From assembly GCA_045126515.1 (NCBI GenBank), contig JBGVOM010000216.1, forward strand, positions 2,187 to 66,186: a stretch of DNA of 64,000 nt, read 5' to 3'. Below are positions 3,201 through 47,177 of this stretch, piece after piece. Origin of the DNA: Lachnospiraceae bacterium. GTDB lineage: Bacteria; Bacillota; Clostridia; Lachnospirales; Lachnospiraceae. Both the position numbers and the translations under genes were made by a program. Position 1 is the first letter of the stretch, and each line of letters opens with the position of its first letter. The notes beneath the pieces were generated by a model. The model was not told where the DNA came from. It searched no databases and worked only from the letters and a program-made list of their open reading frames with translations.

Positions 3201-3311
3201 TGGGAGCAGAGTGTATCCTTTGAAAAGATAGAATAAACGATGAAAAAATTTCTTGACTCGTCCCTTAGGGGAGATTATAGCATAGTCTTATCAAACGAAG
3301 GAGGCTATGCT

Positions 3312-4034
3312 ATGAGTATATGTATCGAAGTAAACAATCTTACCAAAGCATTTTCTGGAAGAACTGTGGTAGATGGACTTTCCTTTCAGGTTGAGACCGG
3401 GGAAGTTTTTGGACTTTTAGGACACAATGGAGCAGGAAAAAGCACCACCATTGATTTGCTTTTAGGGCTAAAGAAACCAGACAGAGGATATGGAAAGATT
3501 TTTGGGATGGAACCGGAAAAAAATCGAAAAAAAGTATTTGAACGGGTTGGGGTGCAGTTACAGTCATCCAACTATCAGAATAATATTCGGGTGGATGAAG
3601 TCTGTCAGCAGATGTCCGCCCTATATAAAAACCCGGAAGACTATCATGAATTGTTAAAATTCTTTTCGCTGGAGCAGTTTGAAAAGTCTAAAGTAAACAA
3701 GCTTTCCGGTGGTGAGAAACAGAAATTGTCTGTTGCCTTATCATTGCTCAATCATCCGGAAATCGTATTTTTAGACGAACTTACCACCGGGCTGGACACA
3801 GCAGCCAGACGGGATGTTTGGAAACAGTTAAAGGAATTGAAGAAAAAGGGAACCACTATTTTTCTTACCACTCATTACATGGAGGAAGCAGAGAGTCTGT
3901 GTGACCGAATTTGTCTGATGAAGAATGGCAAAAAGGTAATTGAGGGAACGGTAAAAGAAGTGGTAGAAAAGAGTCCCTATGACCACTTAGAGGAAGCATA
4001 TCTGTGGTACATGGGCGAGGAGGTGGAACAATGA
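3312..4034 (+). CDS. ABC transporter ATP-binding protein
   Basis: Walker A GHNGAGKST, signature LSGGEKQKL, Walker B IVFLDE. Start ATG 3312 follows AAGGAGG; the ORF track start at 3240 is upstream of the RBS. Confidence 0.8.
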   Translation: MSICIEVNNLTKAFSGRTVVDGLSFQVETGEVFGLLGHNGAGKSTTIDLLLGLKKPDRGYGKIFGMEPEKNRKKVFERVGVQLQSSNYQNNIRVDEVCQQMSALYKNPEDYHELLKFFSLEQFEKSKVNKLSGGEKQKLSVALSLLNHPEIVFLDELTTGLDTAARRDVWKQLKELKKKGTTIFLTTHYMEEAESLCDRICLMKNGKKVIEGTVKEVVEKSPYDHLEEAYLWYMGEEVEQ

Positions 4035-4768
4035 AACGCTTTTTAAAACTTTATTCTGTAGAACAAAAACTGGGACTTCGCTCAGGGGATATGATATTGT
4101 TCGGGGTAGCTATGCCGGTTGGAATTATGATATTGATTTCCATGATTGCAGGGAATAAAATGGCAGGAGAGGGTTACACCTATCTGGAGGGTTCCTTTGC
4201 CTCTTTGATTGCAGTGGGAATCTGCGCATCGGCATTTATGGGAATTCCATTAACCATAGTGGATTATCGGGACAAGAAAATACTGAAGCACTTTTTTACC
4301 ACACCATGTAGTCCTGTATGGCTTTTAGGCAGTGATGTTTTGTGCTGTGCAGTAAATGCCATTCTTTCTGCAGTGGCAGTATCGTTGGTGTCAGTAGTAT
4401 TTTTAGGATATGAAATGCGAGGAAATGTTTTGCAATTTATCGGTGCATGGTTTCTGACCATGATATCTATGTTCAGCATTGGGCTTTTGATGGCAAGTCT
4501 ATGCAGGACAGTAAAAGTGGTAAATGCGGTGACAACTCTGGTGTATTTTCCGATGCTGTTTTTATCCGGAGCAACCATACCTTATGAATTATTTCCGGTG
4601 GGATTGCAAAGAGTGGCTTCTGTACTGCCATTGACGCAGGGAATTAAACTGATGAAGGCAGTATCTATGGGAACGCAGACAGATTCTGTAGGGAAGATAG
4701 TTATATTGCTTGTGTGTATTACGGTAGTTTGTAGTGTGGTTTCCATAAAGACATTTCGATGGGAATAG
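4031..4768 (+). CDS. ABC-2 family transporter permease
   Basis: About 245 aa and hydrophobic with six predicted TM segments. ATG 4031 overlaps the ATPase stop, indicating coupling, and is preceded by GAGGAGG. Confidence 0.65.
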   Translation: MKRFLKLYSVEQKLGLRSGDMILFGVAMPVGIMILISMIAGNKMAGEGYTYLEGSFASLIAVGICASAFMGIPLTIVDYRDKKILKHFFTTPCSPVWLLGSDVLCCAVNAILSAVAVSLVSVVFLGYEMRGNVLQFIGAWFLTMISMFSIGLLMASLCRTVKVVNAVTTLVYFPMLFLSGATIPYELFPVGLQRVASVLPLTQGIKLMKAVSMGTQTDSVGKIVILLVCITVVCSVVSIKTFRWE

Positions 4769-4776
4769 GTGATAAT

Positions 4777-5646
4777 ATGAAAAATATGAAAATGAATGAA
4801 CATCATGAAAGTTGTGAAGTAAAAGAGCAAATCAGACTTTATAGGATTGGCATGTTTGCTAACATGAATCGTGTGACCATCAAGACATTACGCTACTATG
4901 ATGAACAAAATTTGTTGAAACCTGCATATGTGGATGGTGAAAATGGTTATCGGTATTACGGAGCCAGCCAGATTGCGGATTTACATAGAATACTTGCGTT
5001 AAAGAACATGGGATTTTCCATAGAGGATATTCAGAGAATTACAAGTGGTGAAGCAGACAAAAATCTGCTTCATCGGAAAAAACAGGAAATATTAAAAGAG
5101 ATTGCTGAATTGACAGCAAAGTTAGCCCAGGTGGAAAGTTATTTGGCGAAAGAGGATATAGACTTATCTTCACCGGTGCTTGTGAAAAAAATTCCGGAAG
5201 TGATTGTTTGTTCTATGGAGAGAAGAATTGAATCTTATGATGAATTATTTGAAATGATGCCGGAAATGGGAGCAGAAATGGAACGGATTGGATGTATATG
5301 TGCAGAGCCGGAGTATTGCTTCACCCATTATCTGGAACCGGGAGAACTGGGAGAGGATATTTTGATTGAAACCTGTCAGGCAGTAACCGAGAGAAAAGAG
5401 GATTCTGATAAGATAAAGTTTAAGGTTTTACCGGAAGTTGCAGAAGCTGCCTGTATTTTTCATAAAGGTTCTTATGAAACATTTCCAAACTCTTACGCTG
5501 TAGTTTTGAGGTTTATTGAGGAAAACGGTTATGAAATATGCGGAAATATCAGAGAATCTTATATTGACGGAGTGTGGAATAAAGAAAAGGAAGAAGATTG
5601 GTTGTCAGAGATACAGGTTCCGGTAAGGAAAGTATCAAAAAATTAA
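4777..5646 (+). CDS. MerR-family transcriptional regulator with GyrI-like effector-binding domain
   Basis: N-terminal MerR HTH (LYRIGMFANMNRVTIKTLRYYDEQNLLKP), a coiled-coil linker, and a C-terminal domain of about 150 aa typical of GyrI-like domains. Confidence 0.7.
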   Translation: MKNMKMNEHHESCEVKEQIRLYRIGMFANMNRVTIKTLRYYDEQNLLKPAYVDGENGYRYYGASQIADLHRILALKNMGFSIEDIQRITSGEADKNLLHRKKQEILKEIAELTAKLAQVESYLAKEDIDLSSPVLVKKIPEVIVCSMERRIESYDELFEMMPEMGAEMERIGCICAEPEYCFTHYLEPGELGEDILIETCQAVTERKEDSDKIKFKVLPEVAEAACIFHKGSYETFPNSYAVVLRFIEENGYEICGNIRESYIDGVWNKEKEEDWLSEIQVPVRKVSKN

Positions 5647-16751: not shown

Positions 16752-16850
16752 GTAAGTAGAGTACACGACTGGCGGAAACAGGGATGACCTGGGTAGGATG
16801 ACCTACAGGGAGTGTATATACGAGAACAAGCCGACCGCCTGGGCAGACAC
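16752..16850 (+). ncRNA. ZTP (pfl-motif) riboswitch
   Basis: The conserved 5' element cgACTGGCGg and the 3' pseudoknot element CCGACCGCCTGGGCA are both present. GGCGG at about 16770 can pair with CCGCC at about 16835. It sits directly upstream of purO-purH, the canonical ZTP-regulated genes. Confidence 0.75.
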
Positions 16851-16880
16851 GGATAAGTGCGCTCAGGCGGTCTTTTTTCG
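16832..16880 (+). terminator. Riboswitch expression-platform terminator (gaccgcctg...caggcggtc + TTTTTT) overlapping pseudoknot strand
   Basis: Stem arms 16832-16840 and 16864-16872, then a T6 run. The arrangement is competitive with the ZTP pseudoknot, so ligand binding would turn expression on. Confidence 0.65.
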
Positions 16881-16933: not shown

Positions 16934-17647
16934 ATGGAAATGTTATCATTGGAACAGGAACTGAAAAACAATGCATACCCGGGACGTGGTATTGTAATTG
17001 GTAAGTCAAAGGACGGCAAAAAGGCAGTGACAGCATATTTTATCATGGGAAGAAGCTCAAACAGCAGAAACCGTGTGTTCGTGGAAGAAGGCCAGGGAAT
17101 CCGCACAGAAGCTTTTGACCCATCGAAATTAGAAGACCCTAGTCTTATCATTTATGCACCGGTAAGAGTTTTAGGAAACAGAACTATTGTGACAAATGGT
17201 GACCAGACAGACACAATTTACGAAGGAATGGACAAAGAACTTACTTTTGAACAGTCCTTAAGATGTCGCGAATTTGAACCAGACGGTCCAAACTACACAC
17301 CTAGAATTTCTGGTGTAATGCACGTAGAAGGCGGAAATTACGATTACGCTATGTCCATTTTAAAGAGCAACAATGGTAACCCTGACTGCTGCAACCGTTA
17401 TACATTTACTTATGATAAGCCGGTAGCAGGAGAAGGACATTTTATTCATACTTATATGCATGATGGAAATCCACTTCCAAGTTTTGAAGGCGAACCAAAA
17501 TTAGTAGGAATCTCAGATGATATTGACGAGTTTACCAACTTAGTCTGGACAAGCTTAAATGAAGATAATAAAGTATCTTTATTCGTAAGATATATTGATA
17601 TTGAAACAGGAAACTACGAAACAAGAATTATCAACAAGAACAAATAA
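16934..17647 (+). CDS. purO: IMP cyclohydrolase, PurO-like
   Basis: 237 aa. The N-terminus AYPGRGIVIGKSKDGKKAVTAYFIMGRSSNSRNRVF looks like PurO-type IMP cyclohydrolase. It is adjacent to an AICARFT-only purH. Confidence 0.65.
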   Translation: MEMLSLEQELKNNAYPGRGIVIGKSKDGKKAVTAYFIMGRSSNSRNRVFVEEGQGIRTEAFDPSKLEDPSLIIYAPVRVLGNRTIVTNGDQTDTIYEGMDKELTFEQSLRCREFEPDGPNYTPRISGVMHVEGGNYDYAMSILKSNNGNPDCCNRYTFTYDKPVAGEGHFIHTYMHDGNPLPSFEGEPKLVGISDDIDEFTNLVWTSLNEDNKVSLFVRYIDIETGNYETRIINKNK

Positions 17648-17660
17648 AAGGAGAAAAAAT

Positions 17661-18839
17661 ATGAACGAAATTCAGTTAAAATACGGTTGTAACCCAAATC
17701 AGAAACCATCCAGAATTTACATGGAAGATGGAAGTGACTTACCAGTAAAGGTGTTAAATGGTAAGCCGGGCTATATTAATTTTTTAGATGCTTTTAATGG
17801 CTGGCAGTTAGTAAAAGAATTAAAGGAAGCAACAGGACTTCCGGCGGCAACTTCTTTCAAGCATGTATCTCCGGCAGGCGCAGCAGTAGGTCTTCCTTTA
17901 GATGATACTCTGGCAAAAATCTACTGGGTAGATGATTTAGGAGAGTTATCTCCACTTGCCTGTGCTTATGCAAGAGCCAGAGGTGCAGACAGAATGTCTT
18001 CTTTCGGTGATTTTATCGCTTTATCTGATGTGTGCGATGCTGATACTGCAAGATTAATTAAGAGAGAAGTATCTGATGGTGTGATTGCTCCGGGATATAC
18101 GGATGAGGCAATGGAACTGTTAATGCAGAAGAAAAAAGGAAATTATAACATTATCCAGATTGATCCTTCTTATGTACCGGCAGAATTAGAAAGAAAGCAG
18201 GTATATGGAATCACTTTTGAGCAGGGAAGAAATGAACTGGATATCAACGGTGACTTATTATCTAATATTGTTACAAAAAACAAGGAAATTCCGGAATCTG
18301 CATTAATTGATATGAAGATTTCTTTAATCACATTAAAATATACACAGTCTAACTCAGTATGCTATGTAAAAGGTGGACAGGCAATCGGTATCGGTGCAGG
18401 TCAGCAGTCCAGAGTACACTGTACCAGACTGGCAGGTCAGAAAGCTGACAACTGGTATCTTCGTCAGGCACCACAGGTATTAAATCTTCAGTTTGTAGAT
18501 TCTTTGGGACGTGCAGACAGAGATAATACCATTGATGTTTACATTGGTGATGAATACGAAGATGTACTTCGTGAAGGCGAATGGCAGAAACGCTTTAAGG
18601 TAAAACCTCCGGTATTTACCAGAGAAGAAAAGAGAGCATGGTTAGATGGGAATACCAACGTAACGCTTGGTTCTGATGCATTCTTCCCATTCTCAGACAA
18701 TATTGAGAGAGCTTACAAGAGTGGCGTAAAATACATTGCACAGCCGGGCGGTTCTGTAAGAGACGACCTTGTAATTGAATGTGCAGATAAGTACGATATG
18801 GCAATGGCATTTACAGGAATCAGATTATTCCATCACTAA
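17661..18839 (+). CDS. purH: AICAR formyltransferase (PurH AICARFT-domain-only form)
   Basis: Begins MNEIQLKYGCNPNQ and contains KHVSPAGAAVG, typical of the AICARFT domain. ATG 17661 follows AAAGGAGAAAAAAT. Confidence 0.75.
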   Translation: MNEIQLKYGCNPNQKPSRIYMEDGSDLPVKVLNGKPGYINFLDAFNGWQLVKELKEATGLPAATSFKHVSPAGAAVGLPLDDTLAKIYWVDDLGELSPLACAYARARGADRMSSFGDFIALSDVCDADTARLIKREVSDGVIAPGYTDEAMELLMQKKKGNYNIIQIDPSYVPAELERKQVYGITFEQGRNELDINGDLLSNIVTKNKEIPESALIDMKISLITLKYTQSNSVCYVKGGQAIGIGAGQQSRVHCTRLAGQKADNWYLRQAPQVLNLQFVDSLGRADRDNTIDVYIGDEYEDVLREGEWQKRFKVKPPVFTREEKRAWLDGNTNVTLGSDAFFPFSDNIERAYKSGVKYIAQPGGSVRDDLVIECADKYDMAMAFTGIRLFHH

Positions 18840-26427: not shown

Positions 26428-26681
26428 GGTATTGGGAGTGAGTGCACAAATTGCTGTGGCTGGGCAACACGGCTGCGGGGGATAAGAATTTCTAAGGTAT
26501 CCCTAAGCTACGAGGCTGGTACCGGACGTAACCGGGACACATTCGCCATCCGTGGCTCAGGTGTCCCTTTCCCGGACATCCCTGTCCGGGAATTACTGAT
26601 TTTCCAAGGGATACCAAGAAATTCTAATCCCCCTCCGCAGTGTCACCCAGCCACAGCAATTTGTGCACCCGATCCAATAAA
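26428..26681. repeat. Palindromic non-coding element L: ~46-bp terminal inverted repeats + inner IR pair flanking an 80-bp multi-hairpin core
   Basis: 26436-26481 is the reverse complement of 26629-26674. 26482-26504 pairs with 26606-26628. The core is 26519-26598. Confidence 0.8.
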
Positions 26682-26774: not shown

Positions 26775-27030
26775 ATACCGTTCCGAGCATATGGCACAAA
26801 GGATTGGGGCTGTGAGGGTCTGTGGAGATAGGTTAGAACTTCTTGGTATCCTTTCTCAACAAACAGTAATTCCCGGACAGGACGTCCGGGAAAGGGACAC
26901 CTGAGCCATGGATGGCGAATGTGTCCCGGTTACGTCCGGTACCAACTTCTTCCCAAAGGGATACCTTAGAAGTTCTTACCTATCGTAACCGACTCTCACA
27001 GTCCCAATCCTTTGTGCCATATGCCCCCAA
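26775..27030. repeat. Palindromic non-coding element R: same architecture, different outer arms, same core in opposite orientation
   Basis: 26788-26834 is the reverse complement of 26984-27030. Core 26866-26944 is the reverse complement of the L core with about 3 mismatches. Confidence 0.8.
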
Positions 27031-28316: not shown

Positions 28317-28735
28317 AATATATGTACAACCTTTCTTAAAATAATGTATGTGTGCGCAGACACTTTTCTATTATAATACAGAAAGAATGTTCGGTGCAAG
28401 GGAAAACGGAATTGAGATTTCACCTTTTCTAAGGGATTTAATAATTGCTATATTTCATTATCAAATCCCTCACAAACCATTGAAAACACTAAGTTTGTGA
28501 CAGGTGAGCTTTCCCTTAGACTTTCCCTTGTATTATATCGTCCCATATGGGTTTACGAACCCTGATAAGGGCAAAAATAAGGGAAAAGAAATCTCATAAC
28601 ATAGTATAACACAAAATAGCAACGACATGGCGAACTGATTGAAATGCTTTTTTAAAACAACTCATAGCATCCAATTTATTATACGTATGTTTTTCCGACA
28701 TGCAGCATATACTGGTAAAGAGTCGAATCAGCATA

Positions 28736-31313: not shown

Positions 31314-32687
31314 ATGGCTTTCTTTGATAGAAATGATAAAACAGGCGGCTTTATGGATGAAATCCGTTGCGATGAGCCTTCATATCTGATATGGAAGTGG
31401 CATCCTTCTGGTTCCCAACTTGGAGAGAATAACAGAGAAAATGCTATACGCTGGGGTTCATCATTAAGAGTTAAGGATGGAGAAGTTGCGGTTTTTGTTT
31501 ACAAACAACAAAATGGAATAATGCAAGATTTCATTGAAGGTCCCTATGACCAAATCATTAAAACAGAGAACTTCCCAATACTTGCAAGTATTGTAGGATT
31601 GGCTTATGAGGGTGGCACTCCTTTTCAGGCAGAGGTTTATTTTATCAATCTTGCCCAGATTATTCAAACAAAATTTGCTGTTCCGTTCTTTGATGTATAT
31701 GATCCAAGATTTGCAGACTTTGGTGTTCCTCTTGCTGTCAGGGGTACTATCAGCTTTAAAATTGAAGATTACAGAGAATTTATTAAACTGCATCGGCTAA
31801 ACACCTTTAATCTTGCAGATTTTCAAACGCAAATTCGTGATGCTGTAAGCAGATATGTGAAAGACACTGTTGCTAATGCTCCTGCAGCTCACAACATTCC
31901 TTTGATACAGATTGAAACAAAGGTATCTCAAATCAACGATGTTATTGAACTTGACCTTGGAGAAAGATTGAGGGAAACCTTTGGAGTCGAAATTTCCGGT
32001 GTTGATGTTGGTGCTATTGAACTTGACAAATCAAGTGAGGGATATCACTCACTTATGAGTGTGACAAAAGATATTGCTGCAGCAACCGCAAAGGCAGAAT
32101 CCGAAGCACGAATTAAGGATATTGCCGCCAAACAGCGTATTGAAGCAGAGAACTACGAGGAAACTCTGCGTATTCAGAGAGAAGAAGGTCAATATGCTCA
32201 ACATAAGCAAACACAATCGTCTAACATTGGTGCTTTCCAAGTTGAAAAGCAAGCAGAAGTTGGTGTTGCAGGAGCTGAAGCATTGGGACAGATGGGGGCT
32301 AATGGTGCTGGTGATATAAATCTCGGCAGTGGCGGAGACGGCTTTAATATGGCGGCAATGATGGCAAGTATGGCTGTTGGCGGTGCGGTCGGGCAAAACA
32401 TTGCCGGTTCTATGAATAATATGATGCAGGGCATCAATCAACCTGTCCAGACAGACATTACACCTCCACCGATTCCAACGTCGGCTTATAATGTAGCGGT
32501 CAACGGTCAGGCAACCGGACCATTTGATATTAGCATATTGAAGCAAATGGCTATTGCCGGACAATTCAAGGCAAGCAGCTTGGTGTGGAAGTCAGGAATG
32601 GAAACTTGGTTAAGGGCGGACTCTGTCGATGAATTAAAGGATTTGTTCAAAAATGTAATGCCGCCAATCCCAACGACAGAAGAATAA
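31314..32687 (+). CDS. SPFH/band-7-like protein (COG4260 'virion core protein-like') with C-terminal DUF4339/GYF-like domain
   Basis: The N-terminal roughly 250 aa resemble COG4260 SPFH proteins (assignment from memory, unverified). Then a Gly/Ala/Met-rich linker. The C-terminus is GPFDISILKQMAIAGQFKASSLVWKSGMETWLRADSV. Confidence 0.5.
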   Translation: MAFFDRNDKTGGFMDEIRCDEPSYLIWKWHPSGSQLGENNRENAIRWGSSLRVKDGEVAVFVYKQQNGIMQDFIEGPYDQIIKTENFPILASIVGLAYEGGTPFQAEVYFINLAQIIQTKFAVPFFDVYDPRFADFGVPLAVRGTISFKIEDYREFIKLHRLNTFNLADFQTQIRDAVSRYVKDTVANAPAAHNIPLIQIETKVSQINDVIELDLGERLRETFGVEISGVDVGAIELDKSSEGYHSLMSVTKDIAAATAKAESEARIKDIAAKQRIEAENYEETLRIQREEGQYAQHKQTQSSNIGAFQVEKQAEVGVAGAEALGQMGANGAGDINLGSGGDGFNMAAMMASMAVGGAVGQNIAGSMNNMMQGINQPVQTDITPPPIPTSAYNVAVNGQATGPFDISILKQMAIAGQFKASSLVWKSGMETWLRADSVDELKDLFKNVMPPIPTTEE

Positions 32688-35570: not shown

Positions 35571-36221
35571 CTAATAATATCCCCTTGCTTCCCTCCATCC
35601 CCTCACATAACATCTGATTCCAACATAGACTGCCTGCACGAGTAACAGAATAAGCAGGATATTTAACGGCAGTATCGTCTTTATCCATTTTCCAAAGAAA
35701 ATCACAGCCACAATACTTGCCAGCGTCACCATTATAGTAAGTATGTCCATGCAGTTCCTCTTGTAAAGCCTGGCAATCTTTATTCCCGCAAAAACCGCCA
35801 ATGCTCCGGTACCTGCCGCACAGCCGCCGGCAATCAGTATCATTGTCAGCCAATACACAATTCCTGCAATGGCGGTATTTGAGATTCTGTTACTAATCTG
35901 TGCAGCCGCTTTCCCTGCATGGATAACCCATCCTGAAGCCATCTGCAAAAATCCCCATGATTTATTGAGGAATATCCTGCAATCAGAAATAAATGCTTCC
36001 GACTGCACCGCCTGAAAGATGGTGGTTGTAAGAGAGTACCATACTAGCAGGAACATTGTGGTTCCATACCTGGCAGTTTTTGCCTTGTACCTGCCTGCAA
36101 GTTTTTCCCTCTGCCTTTCGTACTTATCCTTCGCTTTCTGGCAGGCTGTTTGGTTACAGATTCTACATTTTTCATAGAGTACCGGCTTTTCAACCGGTAC
36201 CTCTACTTTCTTCTGGTGCAT
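35571..36221 (-). CDS. Hypothetical membrane protein with N-terminal Cys cluster
   Basis: 216 aa. CRICNQTAC near the N-terminus and four clear TM helices. The RBS is weak. Confidence 0.45.
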   Translation of the reverse strand: MHQKKVEVPVEKPVLYEKCRICNQTACQKAKDKYERQREKLAGRYKAKTARYGTTMFLLVWYSLTTTIFQAVQSEAFISDCRIFLNKSWGFLQMASGWVIHAGKAAAQISNRISNTAIAGIVYWLTMILIAGGCAAGTGALAVFAGIKIARLYKRNCMDILTIMVTLASIVAVIFFGKWIKTILPLNILLILLLVQAVYVGIRCYVRGWREARGYY

Positions 36222-36250
36222 CAGGGCATAATCCAGGTAAGGAGCTTAAA

Positions 36251-38011
36251 ATTGGAACGAAAGCGGTGATTCGAAGAAAAAATGGAACTTCGTTTCGAGA
36301 GTTTGCCTTATTTGTTCATGACTTTGCCCTTTTGTTTGACAGAGAAGGCAATGCTTTAAATCCGCCGAAGGTTCCGGGTTCTCATGACGATCCGGGTGTT
36401 ATGGGAATCAATTATCGCTGTGAACCTATGAGAGAAAGGCTAAAATGTCACAAGGATGCAGCCTATGTATTTAGTTCCATTATCCATGGGGATCCTGCCA
36501 CACCGATATTAGAAACTTATCCGGGAGATGAAATCATCATACGTCTTTTAGACGGCGCCCATGAAGAACAGCATTGTTTCAATATTACAGGTATGTCCTG
36601 GCGAAAAGAGATTGCTGACATTCACTCACCAATGACAGCCTCTCAAACCATCGGAATTTCAGAAGTCTTTAATGTAAGAATCGAAGAAGGATATGGTCCC
36701 GGGGATTATCTGTATTATTATGGCGGTATTGATGACGTATGGCTTGGTCTGTGGGGAATTATCCGGGTTTATGGTAAAGTGTGCAAAAAGTTGAAACCAT
36801 TGTGTAAACCTACGAATCAGATTTTCCCTTTACCTCCATGTCCGGGAAAGGGTGCGGTAATCAGAAAATATGAAATTGCGGCAATTCAGACAAAGATTCA
36901 ATACAATAAGCATGGAGACCATGATCCCAATGGACTGGTGTTTGTTCCGGTAGAAGACGTGGCGTTGGTACTTTCCGGAAAGAAAAATCCAAAACCATTA
37001 ATTCTACGTGCCAACGCAGGGGATTGGATAGAGGTGACACTGCACAACATGTTTTCCAAAAAGGAGCCTATTCCTTATTTTGATTATCCGAAAGTACCGC
37101 TGGATATGGAATATCAGCCTTCAGAGAGAGTTTCCTTAAATCCCCAGTTTTTGCAGTATGATAATCTGTGTGATTCAGGAATTAATGTAGGATATAACAA
37201 TAAAGAACAGACGGTGGGACCGGGGGAAAGCAAAAAATACCTGTGGTATGCGGATAAAGAATATGGTGCTTGCAATGTGCAGTCCTTTGGTGATTTGAGA
37301 AATCACAGGTATCACGGATTGTTTGGAGCTATCATTATAGAACCGGTGGGAGCAAAATGGTATGGTGATACATGGATGAAAGAAAATATTTATGAGGAGC
37401 AGGCAGTGATAGAAGCATCGGGTGTGGAGACTTTCCGGGAATTTGTAGTCCTGATACAAAATGGTATCCGCCTTCTGGATGAAAATGGAGAGTTGATTCA
37501 AACAACAGCGACAGAGCCTGGAGAGGAACCGGATGCAGAGGACACCGGGGAGAAGGAATATAATTACCGTTCTGAGCGGTTTGCTAACCGGTTAAAAAGA
37601 AATTCCGCAATTTCACAGGTATTTAGCAGCAGGGTACATGGAGATCCGGCAACGCCTGTGTTTAAAGCATATTCCGGGGAACGTGTTATTTTCAGAACCC
37701 TGATGCCTGCAGATAAGCCAAGAAATGTTAGTTTTGCAGTTCATGGGCATCAATGGAAAGAGCAACCGGAGGACTATTATTCCAGACGAATTCCCCTACA
37801 GGGAGCTGTCAGCATAGGAAACAAATTTGATATAGAATTAGAAGACGGCGCCTCCTGTCCGGGAGATTATCTGTATCGTTCGGGAAGTTTAAAGTGGGAT
37901 GTGGAATCCGGCATGTGGGGAATTTTCAGGGTGATGAAGGAAAGCCTGAAGTGTAAGTGTGTGAATAAGTGCAGGAAGATGGCTTGCTGTTGGGGGAAGA
38001 GAGGGAAGTAG
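36251..38011 (+). CDS. Multicopper-oxidase-like (cupredoxin-fold) protein with degenerate metal ligands; no canonical start, probably 5'-truncated remnant
   Basis: Two internal repeats end in GDYLYYYGG...WGIIRVY and GDYLYRSGS...ESGMWGIFRV. These sit where MCOs have W.YHCH...GM..F. No in-frame ATG/GTG/TTG follows the AAGGAG at 36239; only ATT at 36251 is available. Upstream in-frame sequence back to 36056 is low-complexity and overlaps the minus-strand gene. Confidence 0.35.
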   Translation: MGTKAVIRRKNGTSFREFALFVHDFALLFDREGNALNPPKVPGSHDDPGVMGINYRCEPMRERLKCHKDAAYVFSSIIHGDPATPILETYPGDEIIIRLLDGAHEEQHCFNITGMSWRKEIADIHSPMTASQTIGISEVFNVRIEEGYGPGDYLYYYGGIDDVWLGLWGIIRVYGKVCKKLKPLCKPTNQIFPLPPCPGKGAVIRKYEIAAIQTKIQYNKHGDHDPNGLVFVPVEDVALVLSGKKNPKPLILRANAGDWIEVTLHNMFSKKEPIPYFDYPKVPLDMEYQPSERVSLNPQFLQYDNLCDSGINVGYNNKEQTVGPGESKKYLWYADKEYGACNVQSFGDLRNHRYHGLFGAIIIEPVGAKWYGDTWMKENIYEEQAVIEASGVETFREFVVLIQNGIRLLDENGELIQTTATEPGEEPDAEDTGEKEYNYRSERFANRLKRNSAISQVFSSRVHGDPATPVFKAYSGERVIFRTLMPADKPRNVSFAVHGHQWKEQPEDYYSRRIPLQGAVSIGNKFDIELEDGASCPGDYLYRSGSLKWDVESGMWGIFRVMKESLKCKCVNKCRKMACCWGKRGK

Positions 38012-38177
38012 GTAATAATTGCTAATTTAGTGAAGTTGTTTGTGTTGTTTGGGAGTAGTGTAAAATCGTAGATTATTAAAACATAACGTAGTCCCTCTGT
38101 TCTAACGAACAAAATTAGCATTTTGTAGAAAAAATATGCTTGTACAGATAGGAGTATAGGTTGTATAATTAGATAAA

Positions 38178-38262
38178 ATAAAAAAGGCTAAAAAGCCTTT
38201 TTTAAAGCACCAATGTGCGTAAACAATGTCGGTTAAAACCTTATTTGCACTCACCTTGTAAG
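38178..38262 (-). ncRNA. tracrRNA: Predicted tracrRNA (anti-repeat + nexus GGUU-UU-AACC + terminator)
   Basis: Minus strand reads CUUACAAGGUGAGUGCAAAUAAGGUUUUAACCG... CUUACAAGGU pairs with repeat nt 9-18. GAGUG forms a bulge. CAAAU pairs with repeat nt 1-5. AAUAAGG and the nexus resemble SpCas9 tracrRNA. It ends in the hairpin aaggct/agcctt plus U6. Confidence 0.65.
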
Positions 38263-38300
38263 CAATATTATAATAACATATATTCATAGGTAAATGCAAG
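38263..38300 (-). promoter_or_regulatory. tracrRNA promoter TTGCAT-18-TATTAT(AAT)
   Basis: The reverse complement of 38267-38300 reads cttgcatttacctatgaatatatgttattataat. The predicted start falls at the anti-repeat. Confidence 0.5.
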
Positions 38301-38338: not shown

Positions 38339-41300
38339 ATGGGTAAAAAAATGTATGTGGGAATCGATATGGGAACAAATTCAGTGGGGATGGCAGTAAC
38401 GGATGAAACCTATAATTTGTATAGGGTAAAAGGGAAGGACTTTTGGTGTTCAAGAGTATTTGGAGAAGCTAATACTGCGGTTGAGAGAAGAACTAATCGA
38501 ATATCGAGAAGAAGACGGCAGAGGGAAATGGCTAGACAGGGTGTTTTACGTGAACTGTTTTCAGACGAAATAAATAAGGTGGACGAAGGATTTTTTTCAA
38601 GACTTGATGAGTCAAAGTACCATATGGAGGATAGGGATAATCAGCAACCATATGCTTTGTTTGCAGATAGTGGGTATACGGATAAAAATTATTTTAACGA
38701 TTATCCTACAATATTTCATTTACGTAATGAATTGCTTCATCCTAAAAGGGATGCATATGATGTGCGATTAGTATATTTGGCTATTGCAAATATGTTTAAG
38801 CATAGGGGAAACTTTCTGAATGAGACACTTGAGGTGGAAAAAATAACGTCTAGTGCAGAAGAGGTATATCAGCTTCTTGTAGAAGCGGCTATGATGTATT
38901 CTATAGAATTGCCGGTAAGTATAGACGCGGAAAAACTAGTGAATATCATTGGAGAAAAAGGTGTTTCTAGAAGTAAACACTTAGAAAATGTTAGCGAATA
39001 TCTTGGTGTGTCTAAAAAATGCAAGCAAGCATACGAGATACTAAAGATGGTTTGTGGTATGAGTGGAATCCTTTTTAATATATATGGTGAAGATGTAATT
39101 GATGAGGAAAACAAAAAGTTTAGTTTGAATTTTAGAGATAGTAACTATGAGGAGAAAGAAGCTCAAGCATTAGAATTTTTAGGTGATGATTATTTTGAGT
39201 TGTTAGAGGTGATAAAAGAGCTTCACGATATTGGTATGCTTTCAAGTATTATAAAGGGGCACAAATATCTTTCTGAGTCTAGAGTAGAGCTTTATGAGGA
39301 ACATAAGAAGGATCTTGATATGCTTCAAGGTGTTATGAAAAAGTATGATATGAAAGCCTATGATGAGATGTTCAGAGTTATGAAAGAGGGCAATTACAGT
39401 GCTTATGTAGGTAGCGTTAATGCACTTGGTAAAAAGATAAGAAGAAACGGAGGAAAGGGTAGGTCACAGGAAGATTTTTACAAAGGTGTAAAAGCGGCAC
39501 TCAAGAATTTCCCAGAGAATGATGAAGATGTAAAAGTTATACTAGCTAAGATAGAAAACGAAACATTTATGCCAAAACAGCTGACAGCTTCTAATGGTGT
39601 TATTCCGAATCAGTTACATGCATCTGAAATGAAAGCTATACTTACAAATGCGGAAAAGTACTTGCCTTTTTTACTTGATAAAGATGAATCAGGTCTTACT
39701 GTTTCTCAAAGGATAGTGGAGTTATTTACATTCCACATACCTTATTATGTTGGTCCAATAGGTGCTAGCGGCGATAATGTATGGGCAAGAAGAAGACCGG
39801 GAGAGGAAAAGGGAAAAGTCTATCCATGGAATTTCGAACAAAAAATAGACACGCAGGGTGCAGCAGAAGAATTTATAGGCAGAATGGTTAGGCATTGTAC
39901 ATATCTTACAGGTGAGCGTACATTGCCAAAGCAGTCACTTCTATATGAAAAGTTTATGGTGTTAAACGAATTAAATAATCTTAAAATAAATGGAGCAAAG
40001 CTAGAGGTATCTGTAAAACAGGGAATCTACGATAATCTTTTTAGAAATGGAAAAAAGGTTACGATAAATATGCTAAAAGCTTATTTATACAATAATTCTA
40101 TCATAGCATCAAAGGATGATATTGTAATTACTGGTATTGATGCTGGATTTAATGCGTCATTAACTTCAGTTGGCAAGTTTAGAGGAGTATTAGGAGATGA
40201 CCTGTTTACTGATGAAAATCAGGCAATGGTAGAAAAAATTATATTTTGGGGAACTGTGTATGGTAATGATAAGAAGTTCTTAAAAGAGAGAATAGAAACT
40301 GAGTATAAAGGAAGATTAACGATTGAACAGATAAAACGTATTGTCGGGTTCAAATTTAATGGTTGGGGAAAATTGTCTAAGACCTTTTTGGAGCTTCCTG
40401 GCAATTGCGAATGTGGTGAGTGTTCAATTATACAAGCACTTTGGGAAACAAACCATAATCTTATGGAGCTTTTATCGGAACAATATGGTTTTAAGAAAAA
40501 TCTGGATGCAATGTCAAATGATGTGGAAAAGCCACTTCGTGATTGGACAATAGAAGATTTGGATGGAAAATACTTATCTGCCCCTGTAAAGCGTATGATA
40601 TGGCAGACAATGAAGATGTTAAGAGAGGTTTGTGAATTAACAGGGAAAGAACCGGATAAAGTATTCGTTGAGATGCCGAGAGAACGTGAGAAAAATCCTA
40701 TACGTAAAGATTCTAGAAAGAAGAAATTGATTGAATTATATTCAGCGCTTAAGAGTGAACAAAAGTCATGGGCTGAGCTAAAGATAAGAGAAATTGAAGG
40801 AAAGAGTGAGGCAGACTTTAGAATAAAGAAGTTGTATCTATATTATTTACAACAAGGGAAGTGTATGTATAGTGGTGAAAAAATAGAATTGAGTGACCTT
40901 GTTAATAATAACCTTTATGATATAGACCATATATATCCAAGACACTTTATAAAAGACGACAGTATGGAGAATAATCTGGTGCTTGTGAAAAAGGAAATTA
41001 ATAATCACAAAAGTGATACTTTTCCATTAGAAAAAGGTATACAGAGGAATATGGCAGGATTCTGGAAAACATTATGTGAACGAGGATTTATTACAAAAGA
41101 AAAGTATAACAGACTGACGCGTACGGAAGCCTTTACTGACGAAGAAAAAGCTGCGTTTATTAGCAGACAGTTAGTAGAGACGCGGCAGGGAACGAAAGCT
41201 ATAACGCAGGTTTTGAAACAAGCGTTTCCGAACACACAGGTTATATTTGTAAAGGCTGGTATTGTGAGTGATTTTAGAAAGAAATTCGAAATAAACAAGG

Positions 41301-42445
41301 TAAGAGCATTGAATGATACTCATCATGCAAAAGATGCATACCTGAATATAGTTGTGGGAAATACATATTATACGAAGTTTACCAGTAATCCAATCAATTT
41401 TATAAAAGATGCAACAAAGAATCCTAAGGACGATTTCTTTAAGTACAATATGGATAAAATATTTGATTATAATGTAAGCAGAAATGGGGAAAATGCATGG
41501 GTGGCTGATAATGGAATATCAAAGAAACAGGTTCTTAGCGTGGTCAATAGAAATACTGTGACAATAACCAGAAAGACAGAAGAGTATCATGGTGCATTGT
41601 CTAATAAAGCGACAGTTTGGGGGAAAGATAAAGCTAAGGGAAATCCAGAGGCTTATATGCCAGTTAAATCCAAGGATGCTAAGGCTCAGGACGTTACAAA
41701 GTATGGAGGTATTACATCAATAGCAAATTCTGGATATACACTTATAGAGTACACAATTAAAGGAAAGAAAGTAAGAAGTCTGGAGGCTTTACCTGTATAT
41801 TTGGGAAAAAGTAATACTCTGACAAAGGAGAAAATCTTAGTTTATATGTCAGAGGCTCTTCGTAAGGAGTATGTGGGTAAAGAGGTCTCAGATTTAAGAG
41901 TATGTGTACCATTTATTCCTCAAAAGTCAAAGGTTAGGATAGACGGCTTTGATTACTATTTGGGTGGAAAAACAGGAAATTCTATTTATTTAAATAATGA
42001 TGTGCCACTTTATCTATCATATGGTGATGAAGAATACTTGAGAAAGATAATAAAAGCGATAGAAAAAGCGAATTATGAAGAAAGGGATAAGGGGGGCAAT
42101 GTGATTATTACAAAAGAAAAGAATAATGCACTTTTTAAGACGTTAGAATTAAAGCTTAATAGTAAGCCGTATAATAATAACAGATGGAATATATATAAGA
42201 CGATGGAAGGAAAAGAAGATGTATTCAAAGAGTTAGATATTGAGGAACAGTGTTTTGTTATAAATCAGATTATATATTGGATTAATTCGACTACTCAGAA
42301 TGTTAATCTGAAGAATTTGAAAGGTAGTGAGCATGCAGGAACATTGGTTTTGAATAAAAAAATATCAGAGTGTAATGAATTTACTCTTATTCATCAGTCG
42401 ATAACAGGTATGTATGAAAGAAAAATAGACCTGTTAGCGATATGA
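38339..42445 (+). CDS. cas9: Cas9 (type II-A), 1368 aa
   Basis: RuvC-I MYVGIDMGTNSVGMAV. Arg-rich bridge helix RRTNRISRRRRQRE. HNH DIDHIYPRHF...NNHKSD. RuvC-III HHAKDAYL. ATG 38339 follows GGGGGAT. Confidence 0.95.
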   Translation: MGKKMYVGIDMGTNSVGMAVTDETYNLYRVKGKDFWCSRVFGEANTAVERRTNRISRRRRQREMARQGVLRELFSDEINKVDEGFFSRLDESKYHMEDRDNQQPYALFADSGYTDKNYFNDYPTIFHLRNELLHPKRDAYDVRLVYLAIANMFKHRGNFLNETLEVEKITSSAEEVYQLLVEAAMMYSIELPVSIDAEKLVNIIGEKGVSRSKHLENVSEYLGVSKKCKQAYEILKMVCGMSGILFNIYGEDVIDEENKKFSLNFRDSNYEEKEAQALEFLGDDYFELLEVIKELHDIGMLSSIIKGHKYLSESRVELYEEHKKDLDMLQGVMKKYDMKAYDEMFRVMKEGNYSAYVGSVNALGKKIRRNGGKGRSQEDFYKGVKAALKNFPENDEDVKVILAKIENETFMPKQLTASNGVIPNQLHASEMKAILTNAEKYLPFLLDKDESGLTVSQRIVELFTFHIPYYVGPIGASGDNVWARRRPGEEKGKVYPWNFEQKIDTQGAAEEFIGRMVRHCTYLTGERTLPKQSLLYEKFMVLNELNNLKINGAKLEVSVKQGIYDNLFRNGKKVTINMLKAYLYNNSIIASKDDIVITGIDAGFNASLTSVGKFRGVLGDDLFTDENQAMVEKIIFWGTVYGNDKKFLKERIETEYKGRLTIEQIKRIVGFKFNGWGKLSKTFLELPGNCECGECSIIQALWETNHNLMELLSEQYGFKKNLDAMSNDVEKPLRDWTIEDLDGKYLSAPVKRMIWQTMKMLREVCELTGKEPDKVFVEMPREREKNPIRKDSRKKKLIELYSALKSEQKSWAELKIREIEGKSEADFRIKKLYLYYLQQGKCMYSGEKIELSDLVNNNLYDIDHIYPRHFIKDDSMENNLVLVKKEINNHKSDTFPLEKGIQRNMAGFWKTLCERGFITKEKYNRLTRTEAFTDEEKAAFISRQLVETRQGTKAITQVLKQAFPNTQVIFVKAGIVSDFRKKFEINKVRALNDTHHAKDAYLNIVVGNTYYTKFTSNPINFIKDATKNPKDDFFKYNMDKIFDYNVSRNGENAWVADNGISKKQVLSVVNRNTVTITRKTEEYHGALSNKATVWGKDKAKGNPEAYMPVKSKDAKAQDVTKYGGITSIANSGYTLIEYTIKGKKVRSLEALPVYLGKSNTLTKEKILVYMSEALRKEYVGKEVSDLRVCVPFIPQKSKVRIDGFDYYLGGKTGNSIYLNNDVPLYLSYGDEEYLRKIIKAIEKANYEERDKGGNVIITKEKNNALFKTLELKLNSKPYNNNRWNIYKTMEGKEDVFKELDIEEQCFVINQIIYWINSTTQNVNLKNLKGSEHAGTLVLNKKISECNEFTLIHQSITGMYERKIDLLAI

Positions 42446-43311
42446 GTTGGCGTACGATAGTGGTCTCTAAAAGTGCTAAGTTGGATTACCAGATGGGATA
42501 TATGGTAGTGCGACAGGAAGAGACGACGAAGATATTTTTAAACGAGATAAGTACAGTAATAATAGAGACCACTGCGGTCTCTATTACTGGAACATTGATG
42601 TGTGAGCTGGTAAAGAATAAAATAAAGATAGTATTTTGTGATGAAAAAAGAAATCCCTCGTCGGAGTTGGTGCCGTATTATGGCTCACATGATACCAGTG
42701 CAAAGATAAGAAATCAAATTGCGTGGAGTGATGATATAAAGGCAACTGTATGGACGGAAATCGTGACTGAAAAGATACGAAAACAAAAAGAAGTGTTAGA
42801 AACAGTTTGTAAAGACGAAGAAGCCATGCTGCTGCAAAGCTATATAGATGAGATGCAGTATGGAGATTCTACTAACAGAGAAGGTCATGCTGCAAAGGTT
42901 TATTTTAATACATTATTTGGAAAAGATTTCACGAGAACATCTGATTGTAATATCAATGCAGCTCTTAATTATGGTTATAGTATTGTGCTGTCAGCGTTTA
43001 CGAGGGAAGTAGTAGCGAACGGATATATCACACAGATAGGATTATTTCATGACAATATGTTTAATCAGTTTAATCTGGCTTCGGATTTGATGGAACCTTT
43101 TCGACCAATTGTGGATCAGGTAGTATATGATATGGAACTTCGTACATTTGAAAAAGAAGAAAAGATGAGGTTAGTAAATCTATTGAACCAATCAGTGCGT
43201 ATTAATGATAGGTCAGAATATGTGAACAATGCAATAAAGATATATTGTAAAAGTGTTTTTGATGCACTTGGTGATAAAGATATTGCTATGATTAAGTTCT
43301 ATTCGCTATAA
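42442..43311 (+). CDS. cas1: Cas1
   Basis: 289 aa. Overlaps the cas9 stop (ATGA). Typical Cas1 length and position. Confidence 0.9.
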
Positions 43312-43322
43312 GGGGAAAAGGA

Positions 43323-43643
43323 ATGAGTTACAGATTTATGAGAATACTTGTGATGTTCGATTTGCCGGTGGTTACTTCGGCGGAACGAAAAGAATATGCA
43401 AAATTTAGAAAAAATCTAATAAAATCCGGCTTTTTGATGCTGCAAGAATCGGTATATTGCAAACTGGCACCCAATTCCACGTTAGCGGATGCTGTGATAG
43501 AAAATGTGAGAAAAAACAAGCCGGAAAAGGGGTTGGTGCAAGTGTTGAAGGTGACAGAAAAGCAGTATGCAAAGATGGAATATATCGTGGGAGAAGGCCG
43601 GACAGAAGTGTTATCTTCTGATGATAGGTTGGTGATATTATGA
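43323..43643 (+). CDS. cas2: Cas2
   Basis: 106 aa beginning [16 protein letters not shown], a typical Cas2 N-terminus. Confidence 0.9.
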
Positions 43644-44314
43644 AGCTTGTAGAAAGAGAACTGGGACTTGATATAGAATTAAAAGAAAATGTGGTGTCAG
43701 TTATAGTGGTGGAAGATGTTGCATTAAGACTTCCTATGGTTGAAGGACTGTATTCACAGGTTATGGGAAAAGATGGTAACTGGCTGCTTGTGGAAAATGA
43801 AAAGAAATATGAATTGAGCAAGAAAGCGGAGATTATACTGGAACCATTTTCGCTAGAGCTGAATAACAAAAAAGTGAAAACGAAATTATATCAAGATATC
43901 AAAACAATTGCCCAGGATTTTTGCTTCTCACAAGGAGTAGAGGTGCATTCACATATATGTAATTATCTGGAAAGTTTGCTGGAGAGAATACCGTATCCGG
44001 TAAAATATGAGGAAGAATGGAATTTATTAGAACTTCTCAAGGCATATGGAGTGGAACTTGTGGAGGAATGTGACAGTATGTGTGAAAAGCTATTCAATTA
44101 TATCAAGCTAATTAACCATGTGTGTGGAATTGGTATATTTATAACTGTGAATATCAAACAATATCTGACTGAGAAGCAGATATTAGAGTTGTACAAACTT
44201 GCTATGTATAGTAAAATACAGTTAGTGCTGATAGAATTTAATATGTTTAATGAGAAGTTCGAGTGCGAGGAAATGTATATTTTTGATAAAGACAGTTGCA
44301 TTATAACATATTAG
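43640..44314 (+). CDS. csn2: Csn2 (type II-A signature)
   Basis: 224 aa. Coupled to cas2 (ATGA). It lies between cas2 and the array, and its size and pattern match short Csn2. Confidence 0.8.
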
Positions 44315-44427
44315 AGACAATAAAATGGCGATTTTACACCGACTTTGTGTTATATAAAGAACAATAAGGTGCTTACACATATGCCAATATGTATAGGTTC
44401 GGTGATAACCTTGAAATTGAATTTGAG

Positions 44428-46180
44428 GTTTGAGAACCTTGTAAGTGAATAAAGGTGTAAAACATAATCGAACTTTTGTTTGATAAAATATGGGTTTGAG
44501 AACCTTGTAAGTGAATAAAGGTGTAAAACTTAAAGAAAAAACAAATGGAAAACAGAGCAGTTTGAGAACCTTGTAAGTGAATAAAGGTGTAAAACAAACA
44601 TCATATTTATAATGCCTATGCTGGGGTTTGAGAACCTTGTAAGTGAATAAAGGTGTAAAACATTCTTCCACTTTTAGGAAGATAAACTGTAGTTTGAGAA
44701 CCTTGTAAGTGAATAAAGGTGTAAAACTCACTGTTATTTCCAAAATTACACCCCTTTGTTTGAGAACCTTGTAAGTGAATAAAGGTGTAAAACAATATGT
44801 CAAAACGAAAACTAGAAGTATTTGTTTGAGAACCTTGTAAGTGAATAAAGGTGTAAAACATAAGTTAGATGTAGATAACTACGACTATTGTTTGAGAACC
44901 TTGTAAGTGAATAAAGGTGTAAAACATTTCAGATGAAGGAAACCCAGCGATAGTAGTTTGAGAACCTTGTAAGTGAATAAAGGTGTAAAACTTGTTGTGG
45001 CACGCTAATTGTTGGAATAGTGTTTGAGAACCTTGTAAGTGAATAAAGGTGTAAAACCAAAGGCATAATAAAAATTAGTTGCAATAAGTTTGAGAACCTT
45101 GTAAGTGAATAAAGGTGTAAAACGGCGGGGATTCTCCGAGGGGAAAACTTTTTGTTTGAGAACCTTGTAAGTGAATAAAGGTGTAAAACTCGCTATTAAA
45201 CCAACTAAAGCAGGCAATAGTTTGAGAACCTTGTAAGTGAATAAAGGTGTAAAACCTATCATACCGATATAATCGGGCAGGACATGTTTGAGAACCTTGT
45301 AAGTGAATAAAGGTGTAAAACTACCGAGAATAGAACAAATGTTTATATTTTGTTTGAGAACCTTGTAAGTGAATAAAGGTGTAAAACTAGCAGTAATGAC
45401 ACCAAAGGGCGGTGTAGGTTTGAGAACCTTGTAAGTGAATAAAGGTGTAAAACATTAACAGAATACGAACGACTAGAAGCATTGTTTGAGAACCTTGTAA
45501 GTGAATAAAGGTGTAAAACAATGTCAGAAGGAAGTAAACTTACTCTTCCGTTTGAGAACCTTGTAAGTGAATAAAGGTGTAAAACTATATCACATCCTTT
45601 CCGTTTTCTCCACTAGTTTGAGAACCTTGTAAGTGAATAAAGGTGTAAAACTTTGTTCAGATTTTGTGCAGATTCCTTGGGGTTTGAGAACCTTGTAAGT
45701 GAATAAAGGTGTAAAACGGTGACATTCTTCATTTGCTTCTTGCGACCAGTTTGAGAACCTTGTAAGTGAATAAAGGTGTAAAACTATACCACATTGTTTT
45801 ATAAATCAACATCAGTTTGAGAACCTTGTAAGTGAATAAAGGTGTAAAACTTCCATACCACTGGCATACCGTTCCATTGGTTTGAGAACCTTGTAAGTGA
45901 ATAAAGGTGTAAAACAAATACTATACAGGAATGAGCAACTACGCAGTTTGAGAACCTTGTAAGTGAATAAAGGTGTAAAACGAATTAGCAGCACTTAAAT
46001 GGGAAGATATAGTTTGAGAACCTTGTAAGTGAATAAAGGTGTAAAACATAGGGGGAAATGATATGATTAATAGATTTAGTTTGAGAACCTTGTAAGTGAA
46101 TAAAGGTGTAAAACACATTCGCTTATGGTTAGTGCTAATCGTGCGTTTGAGAACCTTGTAAGTGAATAGTAAGCGCCAAA
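44428..46180 (+). CRISPR. CRISPR array: 27 repeats (36 bp, GTTTGAGAACCTTGTAAGTGAATAAAGGTGTAAAAC), 26 spacers of 29-31 bp; last repeat degenerate at 3' end
   Basis: Counted directly. Repeats start at 44428, 44494, 44560 and so on, with mostly 66-bp period. The final copy at 46145 is GTTTGAGAACCTTGTAAGTGAATAgtaagcgccaaa. The leader is the 113 bp after csn2. Confidence 0.97.
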
Positions 46181-46289: not shown

Positions 46290-47177
46290 TCAAATCTCCA
46301 ACCCCGCAAAGAAATCTTCGCATCTCACAAACTCATGCTGATACCGGAGTAAAAAACCAATTATTTCCGGTGCAGCATCTTGTAATCCTTCCTGCAGTAA
46401 AGGCAGTGTCTGCGCGGTAATATACCCGGTATCAGCAACAATCTTCAGGTACCGGATATCATCCCGAAATTCCTTACAAAGCATCTCGAAAGGAACTGTA
46501 TGTTCTTGTGCCAGTGCACCTTCCGGCATATGGGAAGTCAGGTAATCACACAATATTTTTCTGGTGGAGTTCTCTAAATAGGCAGGATAGAGAAGACGTT
46601 GAAATACAAGAAAAGTTTTCTCACGTTGTCGTTGTTTCGTAAACTTTTGCGTTTGTAAATCCAAATCTTCTACACTAAACCAGCCAAGAAATACAGGCTC
46701 AAATCCGGTATTGTCCGGTGCTGAAAGAAATTGAAGTAAAACAGTATCATAGTCTGCCATCCATTCGGCGTGCTGGGTTTCATTTCCGGCACGTTCCGGG
46801 CAACACAAAGAAGGCTCATTTAACAGAGTGACGGAGGAAGCCAGAAAGTAAGGCAATCCAGAATTCTTAGAATGATCCGGTTCAATTTTAATTTCTGTCA
46901 GATTGATACAGTCCAGAAAAACATTTTTTCCCAAACGAATAGAATGAGCCGGTAAAGTAAGGGATTTCAGACTTTTCATATGGGCAAATCCCCAATCGCC
47001 GATTTCCTGAATGGTTTCCGGTAAAGTCAGATGTGTAATACTTTTACAGCTTAAAAAAGCTTTTGCTCCAATTTCAGTTACCGGAAGAGCATTTACCAGA
47101 GCAGGTATAGTTACCGTGGTTTCATTTCCCTGATAGCTTTCCAAAAAGTAATTGGTATCCTTTTTCACGAATTTCAT
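46290..47177 (-). CDS. Hypothetical protein with N-terminal leucine-rich-repeat (BspA-type) region
   Basis: 295 aa. The N-terminal LRR-like periodicity (TIPALVNALPVTEIGAKAFLSCKSITHLTLPETIQEIGDWGF) is recognisable. No signal peptide. Confidence 0.4.
   Translation of the reverse strand: MKFVKKDTNYFLESYQGNETTVTIPALVNALPVTEIGAKAFLSCKSITHLTLPETIQEIGDWGFAHMKSLKSLTLPAHSIRLGKNVFLDCINLTEIKIEPDHSKNSGLPYFLASSVTLLNEPSLCCPERAGNETQHAEWMADYDTVLLQFLSAPDNTGFEPVFLGWFSVEDLDLQTQKFTKQRQREKTFLVFQRLLYPAYLENSTRKILCDYLTSHMPEGALAQEHTVPFEMLCKEFRDDIRYLKIVADTGYITAQTLPLLQEGLQDAAPEIIGFLLRYQHEFVRCEDFFAGLEI

Follow-up and report, generated by a model that had tools for sequence, protein, structure and literature searches.

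A probable tracrRNA gene divergent from cas9 in a type II-A CRISPR-Cas locus of a Lachnospiraceae bacterium

Does the short stretch ahead of cas9 in this Lachnospiraceae genome encode the tracrRNA of its CRISPR-Cas9 system and, if so, on which strand? The window that we analyzed, 64,000 nucleotides in all, contains a complete type II-A locus on its plus strand. It is composed of cas9 (38339-42445, 1368 aa; Pfam Cas9_REC, HNH_4, Cas9_RuvC, and Cas9_PI, that is, REC lobe, HNH, RuvC, and PAM-interacting domains), the adaptation genes cas1 (42442-43311; Cas_Cas1), cas2 (43323-43643; CRISPR_Cas2), and csn2 (43640-44314; Cas_Csn2), a leader of 113 nt (44315-44427), and an array of 27 repeats (44428-46180; GTTTGAGAACCTTGTAAGTGAATAAAGGTGTAAAAC) with 30-nt spacers and a degenerate final repeat. 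The leader ends in ATTTGAG, which abuts the GTTT of the first repeat, and this junction is the conserved leader-repeat end of group 1 type II-A systems (PMC5382924). Given this junction and the degenerate distal repeat, the crRNAs were assigned to the plus strand, and the tracrRNA therefore needs to carry the complement of the plus-strand repeat. A promoter scan of the leader revealed no strong promoter, the best match (9/12) being at an uninformative level. The Cas9 shares 90% identity with that of a Eubacterium sp. MAG and 85% with that of a Roseburia hominis strain, and the 90%-identity protein cluster of the window Cas9 has two members only. On the 3' side of the array, an ORF on the minus strand (46290-47177) encodes BspA-type leucine-rich repeats (PF13306).

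We consider it highly probable (about 0.93) that the stretch 38178-38300 is the tracrRNA gene of this locus, divergent from cas9 and 73 nt upstream of its ATG at 38339. Read on the minus strand, the gene would begin with a -35 box, TTGCAT (38299-38294), and a -10 box, TATTAT (38275-38270), separated by an 18-nt spacer whose final 3 nt are TGT (38278-38276), which yields a sigma-70-type promoter of the form TTGCAT-18-TGn-TATTAT. From this promoter, the transcript would start at about G38263, 7 nt 3' of the -10 box, or at 38266, and it would end at an intrinsic terminator within the U6 run at 38185-38180, giving a predicted product of about 84-87 nt. The upper stem of the anti-repeat, (AUUG)CUUACAAGGU (38253-38266), includes the exact complement of repeat nt 9-18, CTTACAAGGT (38262-38253). 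If the RNA starts at 38266, G-U, U-G, and A-U pairs extend this stem to repeat nt 21, so that it has 13 bp, compared with about 11 bp for a start at 38263. The bulge GAGUG (GAGTG in the DNA; 38252-38248) lies opposite AGA of the repeat (nt 6-8) in a 3x5 internal loop, and the lower stem CAAAU (38247-38243) pairs with repeat nt 1-5 (GUUUG), with a terminal G1-U wobble. After an AA junction read directly from the sequence (38242-38241) come the nexus hairpin GGUU-UU-AACC (38240-38231) and a second hairpin, GCAC-AUUG-GUGC (38218-38207), both defined by folding and covariation. The terminator, AAAAAAGGC-UUUUU-AGCCUUUUUU (38203-38180; AAAAAAGGC-TTTTT-AGCCTTTTTT in the DNA), has its T6 at 38185-38180 and was matched in the minus-strand terminator scan at 38204-38179. 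A preliminary description of this DNA, made from the letters alone, had proposed the minus-strand promoter TTGCAT-18-TATTAT, the complement to repeat nt 1-5 and 9-18 across a 5-versus-3 nt internal loop, and the nexus, and each of these was present. It had also recognized the terminator hairpin with its U6 but had overlooked hairpin 2.

The repeat (nt 1-5 and 9-21) forms a duplex with the anti-repeat across the 3x5 loop at -19.9 kcal/mol. Folded alone, the predicted tracrRNA adopted the nexus, hairpin 2, and the terminator (-24.8 kcal/mol, z = -3.3). For an sgRNA-like crRNA-GAAA-tracrRNA fusion, the minimum-energy structure contained the lower stem, the 3x5 loop, an 11-bp upper stem, the nexus, the hairpin, and the terminator. 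A 5' hairpin returned by RNAalifold (alignment columns 3-19) was an artefact of the anti-repeat folding on itself and was left out of the model.

The predicted terminator is bidirectional in its arrangement of A-tract, stem, and T-tract. A hairpin forms on the plus strand as well (-11.9 kcal/mol, z = -3.9), with T6 after it, which makes the earlier proposal that the same hairpin can end the upstream gene a reasonable one. Between the stop codon of the upstream ORF (36056-38011) and the hairpin, no terminator-like site other than the hairpin itself was found on the plus strand, and the terminator probably also shields the CRISPR locus from plus-strand transcripts running in from the upstream gene. 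This ORF, immediately upstream of the tracrRNA terminator, encodes 651 aa and had no Pfam match.

To place the complementarity of the site in the context of the window, we scanned the repeat in both orientations against both strands with RNAduplex (approximately 41,000 scanning windows). By duplex energy, the tracrRNA site ranked 27th for the whole repeat, 3rd for nt 1-24, and 2nd for nt 1-20. Equal or better pairing was observed at 31792-31831(+), which scores best against the full repeat, and at 18742-18787(-), 31594-31633(+), and 28531-28570(-), where it is the 5' part of the repeat that pairs. By itself, the pairing energy lies within the chance range for 128 kb. Three of the competing sites lie inside long ORFs (31314-32687 and 17595-18839) and were rejected as chance pairings. 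The fourth, 28531-28570(-) (CTTATCAGGGTTCGTAAAC), is intergenic and pairs with repeat nt 1-18 at -19.2 kcal/mol versus -18.9 kcal/mol for the tracrRNA site; it has no nexus, terminator, or covariance-model match and was also judged to be due to chance. One could thus suppose that the element ahead of cas9 is itself a coincidental match, or the decayed remains of an orphan repeat, lying beside the bidirectional terminator of the upstream gene and giving rise to no functional RNA. The pairing energies are compatible with this account, as is the ability of the hairpin to terminate on both strands, but the competing sites do not have the nexus-terminator architecture that accompanies the anti-repeat at 38178-38300.

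The Rfam search of the window gave no tracrRNA match at the gathering threshold. At a lax threshold, the tracrRNA family RF02348 aligned end to end (positions 1-92) with 38178-38266(-), at 16 bits and E = 6.7; this score, against a gathering threshold of 70 bits, is no better than those of unrelated families, and the match was used as a coincidence of coordinates only. The window RNA is hence not a member of RF02348 by the Rfam criterion, a failure that we attribute to the narrow seed of the family. Since neither complementarity nor Rfam is decisive, the case for a tracrRNA rests on context and comparison.

For the comparison, we scanned one genome per species and retrieved 33 loci with Cas9 proteins 35-90% identical to that of the window, from Lachnospiraceae, Peptococcaceae, Veillonella, and other genomes. 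In 31 of the 33 loci, the tracrRNA element was present in the opposite orientation to cas9, 53-305 nt ahead of the cas9 start. No element was found upstream of cas9 in locus L033, the form in L032 is more divergent and was missed by the motif scan, and the copies in two further loci (L005 and L007) are interrupted by the contig end. The relatives share a common scheme consisting of an upper stem, a 5-nt bulge (GAGTG, GAGTT, or AAGTT), CAAAT, A(A), a nexus starting with G, hairpins, and a terminator made of A-tract, stem, and T-tract. Past the terminator, the sequence varies between loci, so the conserved block ends there. The site is kept beside cas9 even though the upstream flanks differ between loci, which is difficult to reconcile with a chance match or a relic.

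The pairing between repeat and anti-repeat was evaluated in 17 loci in which the array and the element could be placed in one register, by joining repeat nt 1-24 to the 26-nt anti-repeat. In this alignment, 92.2% of the cells were paired, versus 28-43% when the partners were slid by 1-3 columns. Two-sided changes occurred in 12 of 21 pairs, and the covariation score was reached by none of 500 shuffles. In the upper stem, 11 of 16 pairs showed compensatory changes, while the lower stem was paired in all cells (100%), including the G1-U pair in 17/17 loci. Examples are GCTTG with CAAGT (L010), CCCTG with CAGGG (L030), TTGTTAATT with AATTAACAA (L020), and GTAGTGTGATTC with GAATCACACTAC (Veillonella group). 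A second alignment, of 24 loci, was used for the intramolecular pairs. There, the nexus and hairpin 2 were paired in 99.4% of the cells, with compensatory changes in 4/7 pairs. The GG:CC pairs of the nexus were invariant and its third pair was A-U, U-A, or C-G, with none broken; in hairpin 2, 98.9% of the cells were paired and 3/4 pairs were compensatory. These results bear out the layout of lower stem, bulge, and upper stem that the preliminary description had read by likeness to known guide duplexes, as well as its nexus. They also argue strongly against a chance match or decayed repeat, because the compensatory changes follow the repeat of each locus and because the nexus and hairpin 2, which lie outside the anti-repeat, covary as well.

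As an independent check, we trained a covariance model on 16 relatives with Cas9 identities of no more than 67%, excluding the window and its near relatives. In the 64-kb window, this model gave a single significant match, 38174-38266(-), with 78.7 bits and E = 3.7e-14; the runner-up reached 12.6 bits (E = 2), and none of the other repeat-pairing sites reached 13 bits. With the filters off, a search of the cas locus for a second copy returned only weak minus-strand echoes of the repeats. The preliminary description had named a better anti-repeat elsewhere as the finding that would speak against it; raw pairing is indeed matched or beaten at other sites, but the model found no better tracrRNA candidate in the available sequence. 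Taken with the conservation of the promoter described below, these observations leave the chance or relic account extremely improbable. A wider implication is that the tracrRNAs of this whole Cas9 clade escape the Rfam tracrRNA model, while a small clade-specific covariance model finds them cleanly.

The helices alone could be formed from either strand, since Watson-Crick pairs are equally possible on both. The polarity of the predicted tracrRNA is fixed on the minus strand because its G-U pairs, the invariant G1-U among them, become C-A mismatches on the opposite one. This bears on a reading in which the plus strand is the functional one and the element is a repeat-like, structured part of a long cas9 5' UTR, either working in cis or serving as decoy to a tracrRNA that is encoded at another site. 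Such a transcript could originate from a plus-strand site at 38141-38169 (TGTACA-17-TATAAT, 10/12), which ends 10 nt before the bidirectional terminator and recurs in two of the relatives (L001 and L002). However, this site is absent from the more distant relatives, and indeed from most of them, and an RNA started there would reach the terminator within about 30 nt. In addition, the covariance-model searches found no other tracrRNA candidate in the window, and small RNA-seq of the related FrCas9 system shows an RNA from the opposite strand (PMC8931148). We therefore give the plus-strand reading almost no credence and retain a minus-strand tracrRNA. If it were made, a transcript from 38141-38169(+) would start with the terminator hairpin and run antisense across the tracrRNA.

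Conservation also supports the promoter assigned to the tracrRNA. A -35 box and a -10 box precede the anti-repeat in nearly all relatives, with TTGCAT, TTGCAC, or TTGACA at the same distance as in the window, and the TGn and -10 element is kept in most of them; the hexamers proposed initially are thus those that are conserved. A promoter consensus score of at least 10/12 was obtained for 67% of the loci versus 2.5% of shuffles. In Veillonella and in L032, the promoter is 24-31 nt farther off and the anti-repeat is correspondingly longer. The consensus scan had also returned TTTACC-16-TATAAT, whose -35 box showed no conservation in the relatives, and TTGCAT-18-TATTAT was preferred.

On the plus strand, back to back with the tracrRNA promoter and sharing its AT-rich -10 region, we observed TTGCAC (38245-38250)-18-TATAAT (38269-38274). 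Its -35 box falls in the DNA encoding the bulge and lower stem of the tracrRNA, and the arrangement recurs in 10 of 26 loci, almost exclusively among close relatives. This site could serve as the promoter of cas9 or could be a by-product of an AT-rich, nearly palindromic -10 region. The more elaborate proposal that it serves as the cas9 promoter, excludes the simultaneous presence of polymerase at both promoters, and sets the tracrRNA:Cas9 ratio by coupling or competition seems to us unlikely. If 38245-38274 is the cas9 promoter, the tracrRNA and cas9 transcripts would have 5' ends that overlap over about 18 nt. Any antisense relation of the tracrRNA to the cas9 mRNA would turn on where cas9 transcription starts. 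Neither this site nor the one at 38141-38169 changes the conclusion about the tracrRNA.

The relation of the gene to cas9 also depends on where the cas9 coding sequence starts. The ATG at 38339, already favored in the preliminary description over an ORF opening at 38294, is supported as the true start. It is preceded by an AGGGGG ribosome-binding site 6 nt upstream, and the N-terminus that it yields, MGKKMYVGIDMGTNSVG, can be aligned with those of the relatives, for example MDKKMYVGIDMGTNSVG. The 15-codon upstream extension is not conserved and is closed by stop codons in relatives, and public collections contain the 1368-aa product but not a 1383-aa version. The spurious ATG at 38294 comes from the -35 box TTGCAT, whose CAT reads as ATG on the plus strand, and the tracrRNA gene is consequently clear of the cas9 coding sequence. 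Of the overlap with the cas9 5' region that had been described, what stands is that the -35 box covers this spurious ATG; the RNA itself does not reach the coding sequence.

The divergent arrangement brings to mind an additional role for the tracrRNA. In S. pyogenes, a long form of the tracrRNA acts as a natural single guide that represses the promoter of cas9, and the present RNA might do likewise, given that its gene and cas9 are divergent, lie 73 nt apart, and appear to have overlapping promoters. A long form would need a second promoter farther upstream, though, and no conserved one was found; minus-strand promoter-like sites inside cas9 were at chance level (7 versus 4.5 +/- 2.5 expected). 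We regard this autoregulation as very unlikely.

Comparison with known systems likewise pointed to a tracrRNA. The nearest structurally solved Cas9 is FrCas9 of Faecalibaculum rodentium (PDB 9JWK), which matched the window protein over its full length with 1021.6 bits, whereas SpCas9 reached about 440. The FrCas9 tracrRNA is encoded on the opposite strand upstream of cas9, where it was detected by small RNA-seq, and the mature crRNAs retain approximately 20 nt of the repeat (PMC8931148). We compared its repeat (GTTTGAGTGTCTTGTTAATTC...) and tracrRNA (AATTAACAAGATGAGTTCAAATCAGG...CCGAAC...GGGCATTGTGCCC; PMC8931148, Supplementary Tables 2-3) with those of the window by hand and by gapped alignment, and the modules align one by one. 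The pairing register is alike (repeat nt 1-5 and 9-20, with GAGTT as the 5-nt bulge of FrCas9), and a hand count over the 23 bases that run from the upper stem through CAAAT-xAGG gave 19 identities. Both RNAs have CCGA past the nexus and a GxxCATTGxGxxC hairpin, and the upper stem of FrCas9 is equally short. FrCas9 differs in the repeat and upper stem by compensatory changes (repeat TCTTGTTAATT against ACCTTGTAAGT), has CA rather than AA at the junction, and has a nexus region about 7 nt longer. The predicted window RNA, unlike that of FrCas9, has a separate A-tract/U-tract terminator after hairpin 2. It has the motif ACAAGGTGAGTKCAAATAAGG of the FrCas9-type tracrRNA clade, to which II-A loci of Lachnospiraceae, Veillonella, and Faecalibaculum belong. 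Judged by these alignments, the predicted tracrRNA is homologous to the expressed RNA of FrCas9 and adds to an already characterised lineage. This homology, together with the conservation and covariation in related loci, bears out the minus-strand assignment.

The more distant S. pyogenes system (SpCas9, about 440 bits as above) has the same order of modules in its tracrRNA and scaffold, namely, a bulged anti-repeat, a terminal G-U, AA, an AAGG...CCG nexus, 3' hairpins, and a U-run, and its tracrRNA gene is likewise upstream of cas9 and divergent. The sequence of its anti-repeat is unlike that of the window. The S. pyogenes anti-repeat is also longer (about 24 nt), and two promoters produce long and short primary forms. 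The window promoter abuts the anti-repeat, which leaves an upper stem of only about 11-13 bp, short in comparison with S. pyogenes. More generally, the tracrRNA of type II-A systems is usually located upstream of cas9 (PMC3737331). According to Faure et al. (PMC6546382), guide RNAs in general combine an imperfect hybrid that has one main bulge and ends in a G-U pair, an A or AA junction, a nexus whose first base is G, and a Rho-independent terminator, and all of these were found in the predicted tracrRNA. Its AA junction also agrees with the expected spacing of 1-3 nt between hybrid and nexus.

The comparison of related loci establishes the strand of the putative tracrRNA, its helices, its pairing with the repeat, and its fixed association with cas9. 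As covariation suggests, the 5' anti-repeat would pair with each repeat of the plus-strand pre-crRNA through a lower stem (nt 1-5) and an upper stem (nt 9 to 19 or 21). By analogy with S. pyogenes and FrCas9, Cas9 would bind the duplex, and trimming would reduce the repeat portion of the mature crRNA to about 20 nt; the dual RNA would be anchored in Cas9 through its AA junction, GG-based nexus, and 3' hairpins, and the guide-loaded nuclease would then cut matching DNA. With this gene, the annotation of a type II-A locus that looks functional becomes complete in a Lachnospiraceae genome from an uncultured or little-studied source; the start codon of cas9 is fixed, and a guide-RNA scaffold becomes available for testing an FrCas9-like nuclease. 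The practical value is modest, and knowledge of how tracrRNAs work is unchanged.

Several minor observations were made along the way. Two relatives have one or two CRISPR repeats upstream of the tracrRNA gene, on the side that faces away from cas9 (L018, 5559-5660(+); L021, 5718-5753(+)); these could be a remnant or a mini-array and are perhaps relevant to the idea of a repeat origin of tracrRNAs. Two Veillonella tracrRNAs (L024 and L031, 5657-5755(-) in each) have 3 nt fewer at the bulge than those of L023 and L025 (CACACTCGTTCAAAT versus CACACTACAAGTTCAAAT), a loss that shifts the pairing register, while the repeat is otherwise identical. We also considered a phage-borne tracrRNA core, but the one IMG/VR contig matched was host DNA with a broken cas9 beside an integrase gene, not a phage guide RNA. 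In this contig (L035, IMGVR_UViG_3300045988_162529, 2807-5440), the tracrRNA gene is intact and cas9 is broken after the REC lobe into pieces of 589 and 219 aa; with a phage-integrase gene beside the break, it looks like a mobile element inserted into cas9. Elsewhere in the window, two full-length TwoAYGGAY RNAs (RF01731, 118-119 bits) were found 180 nt apart and facing away from each other at 26470-26640(-) and 26821-26990(+), and a ZMP/ZTP riboswitch aptamer (RF01750) was located at 16755-16851(+), with 49 bits, over its gathering score.
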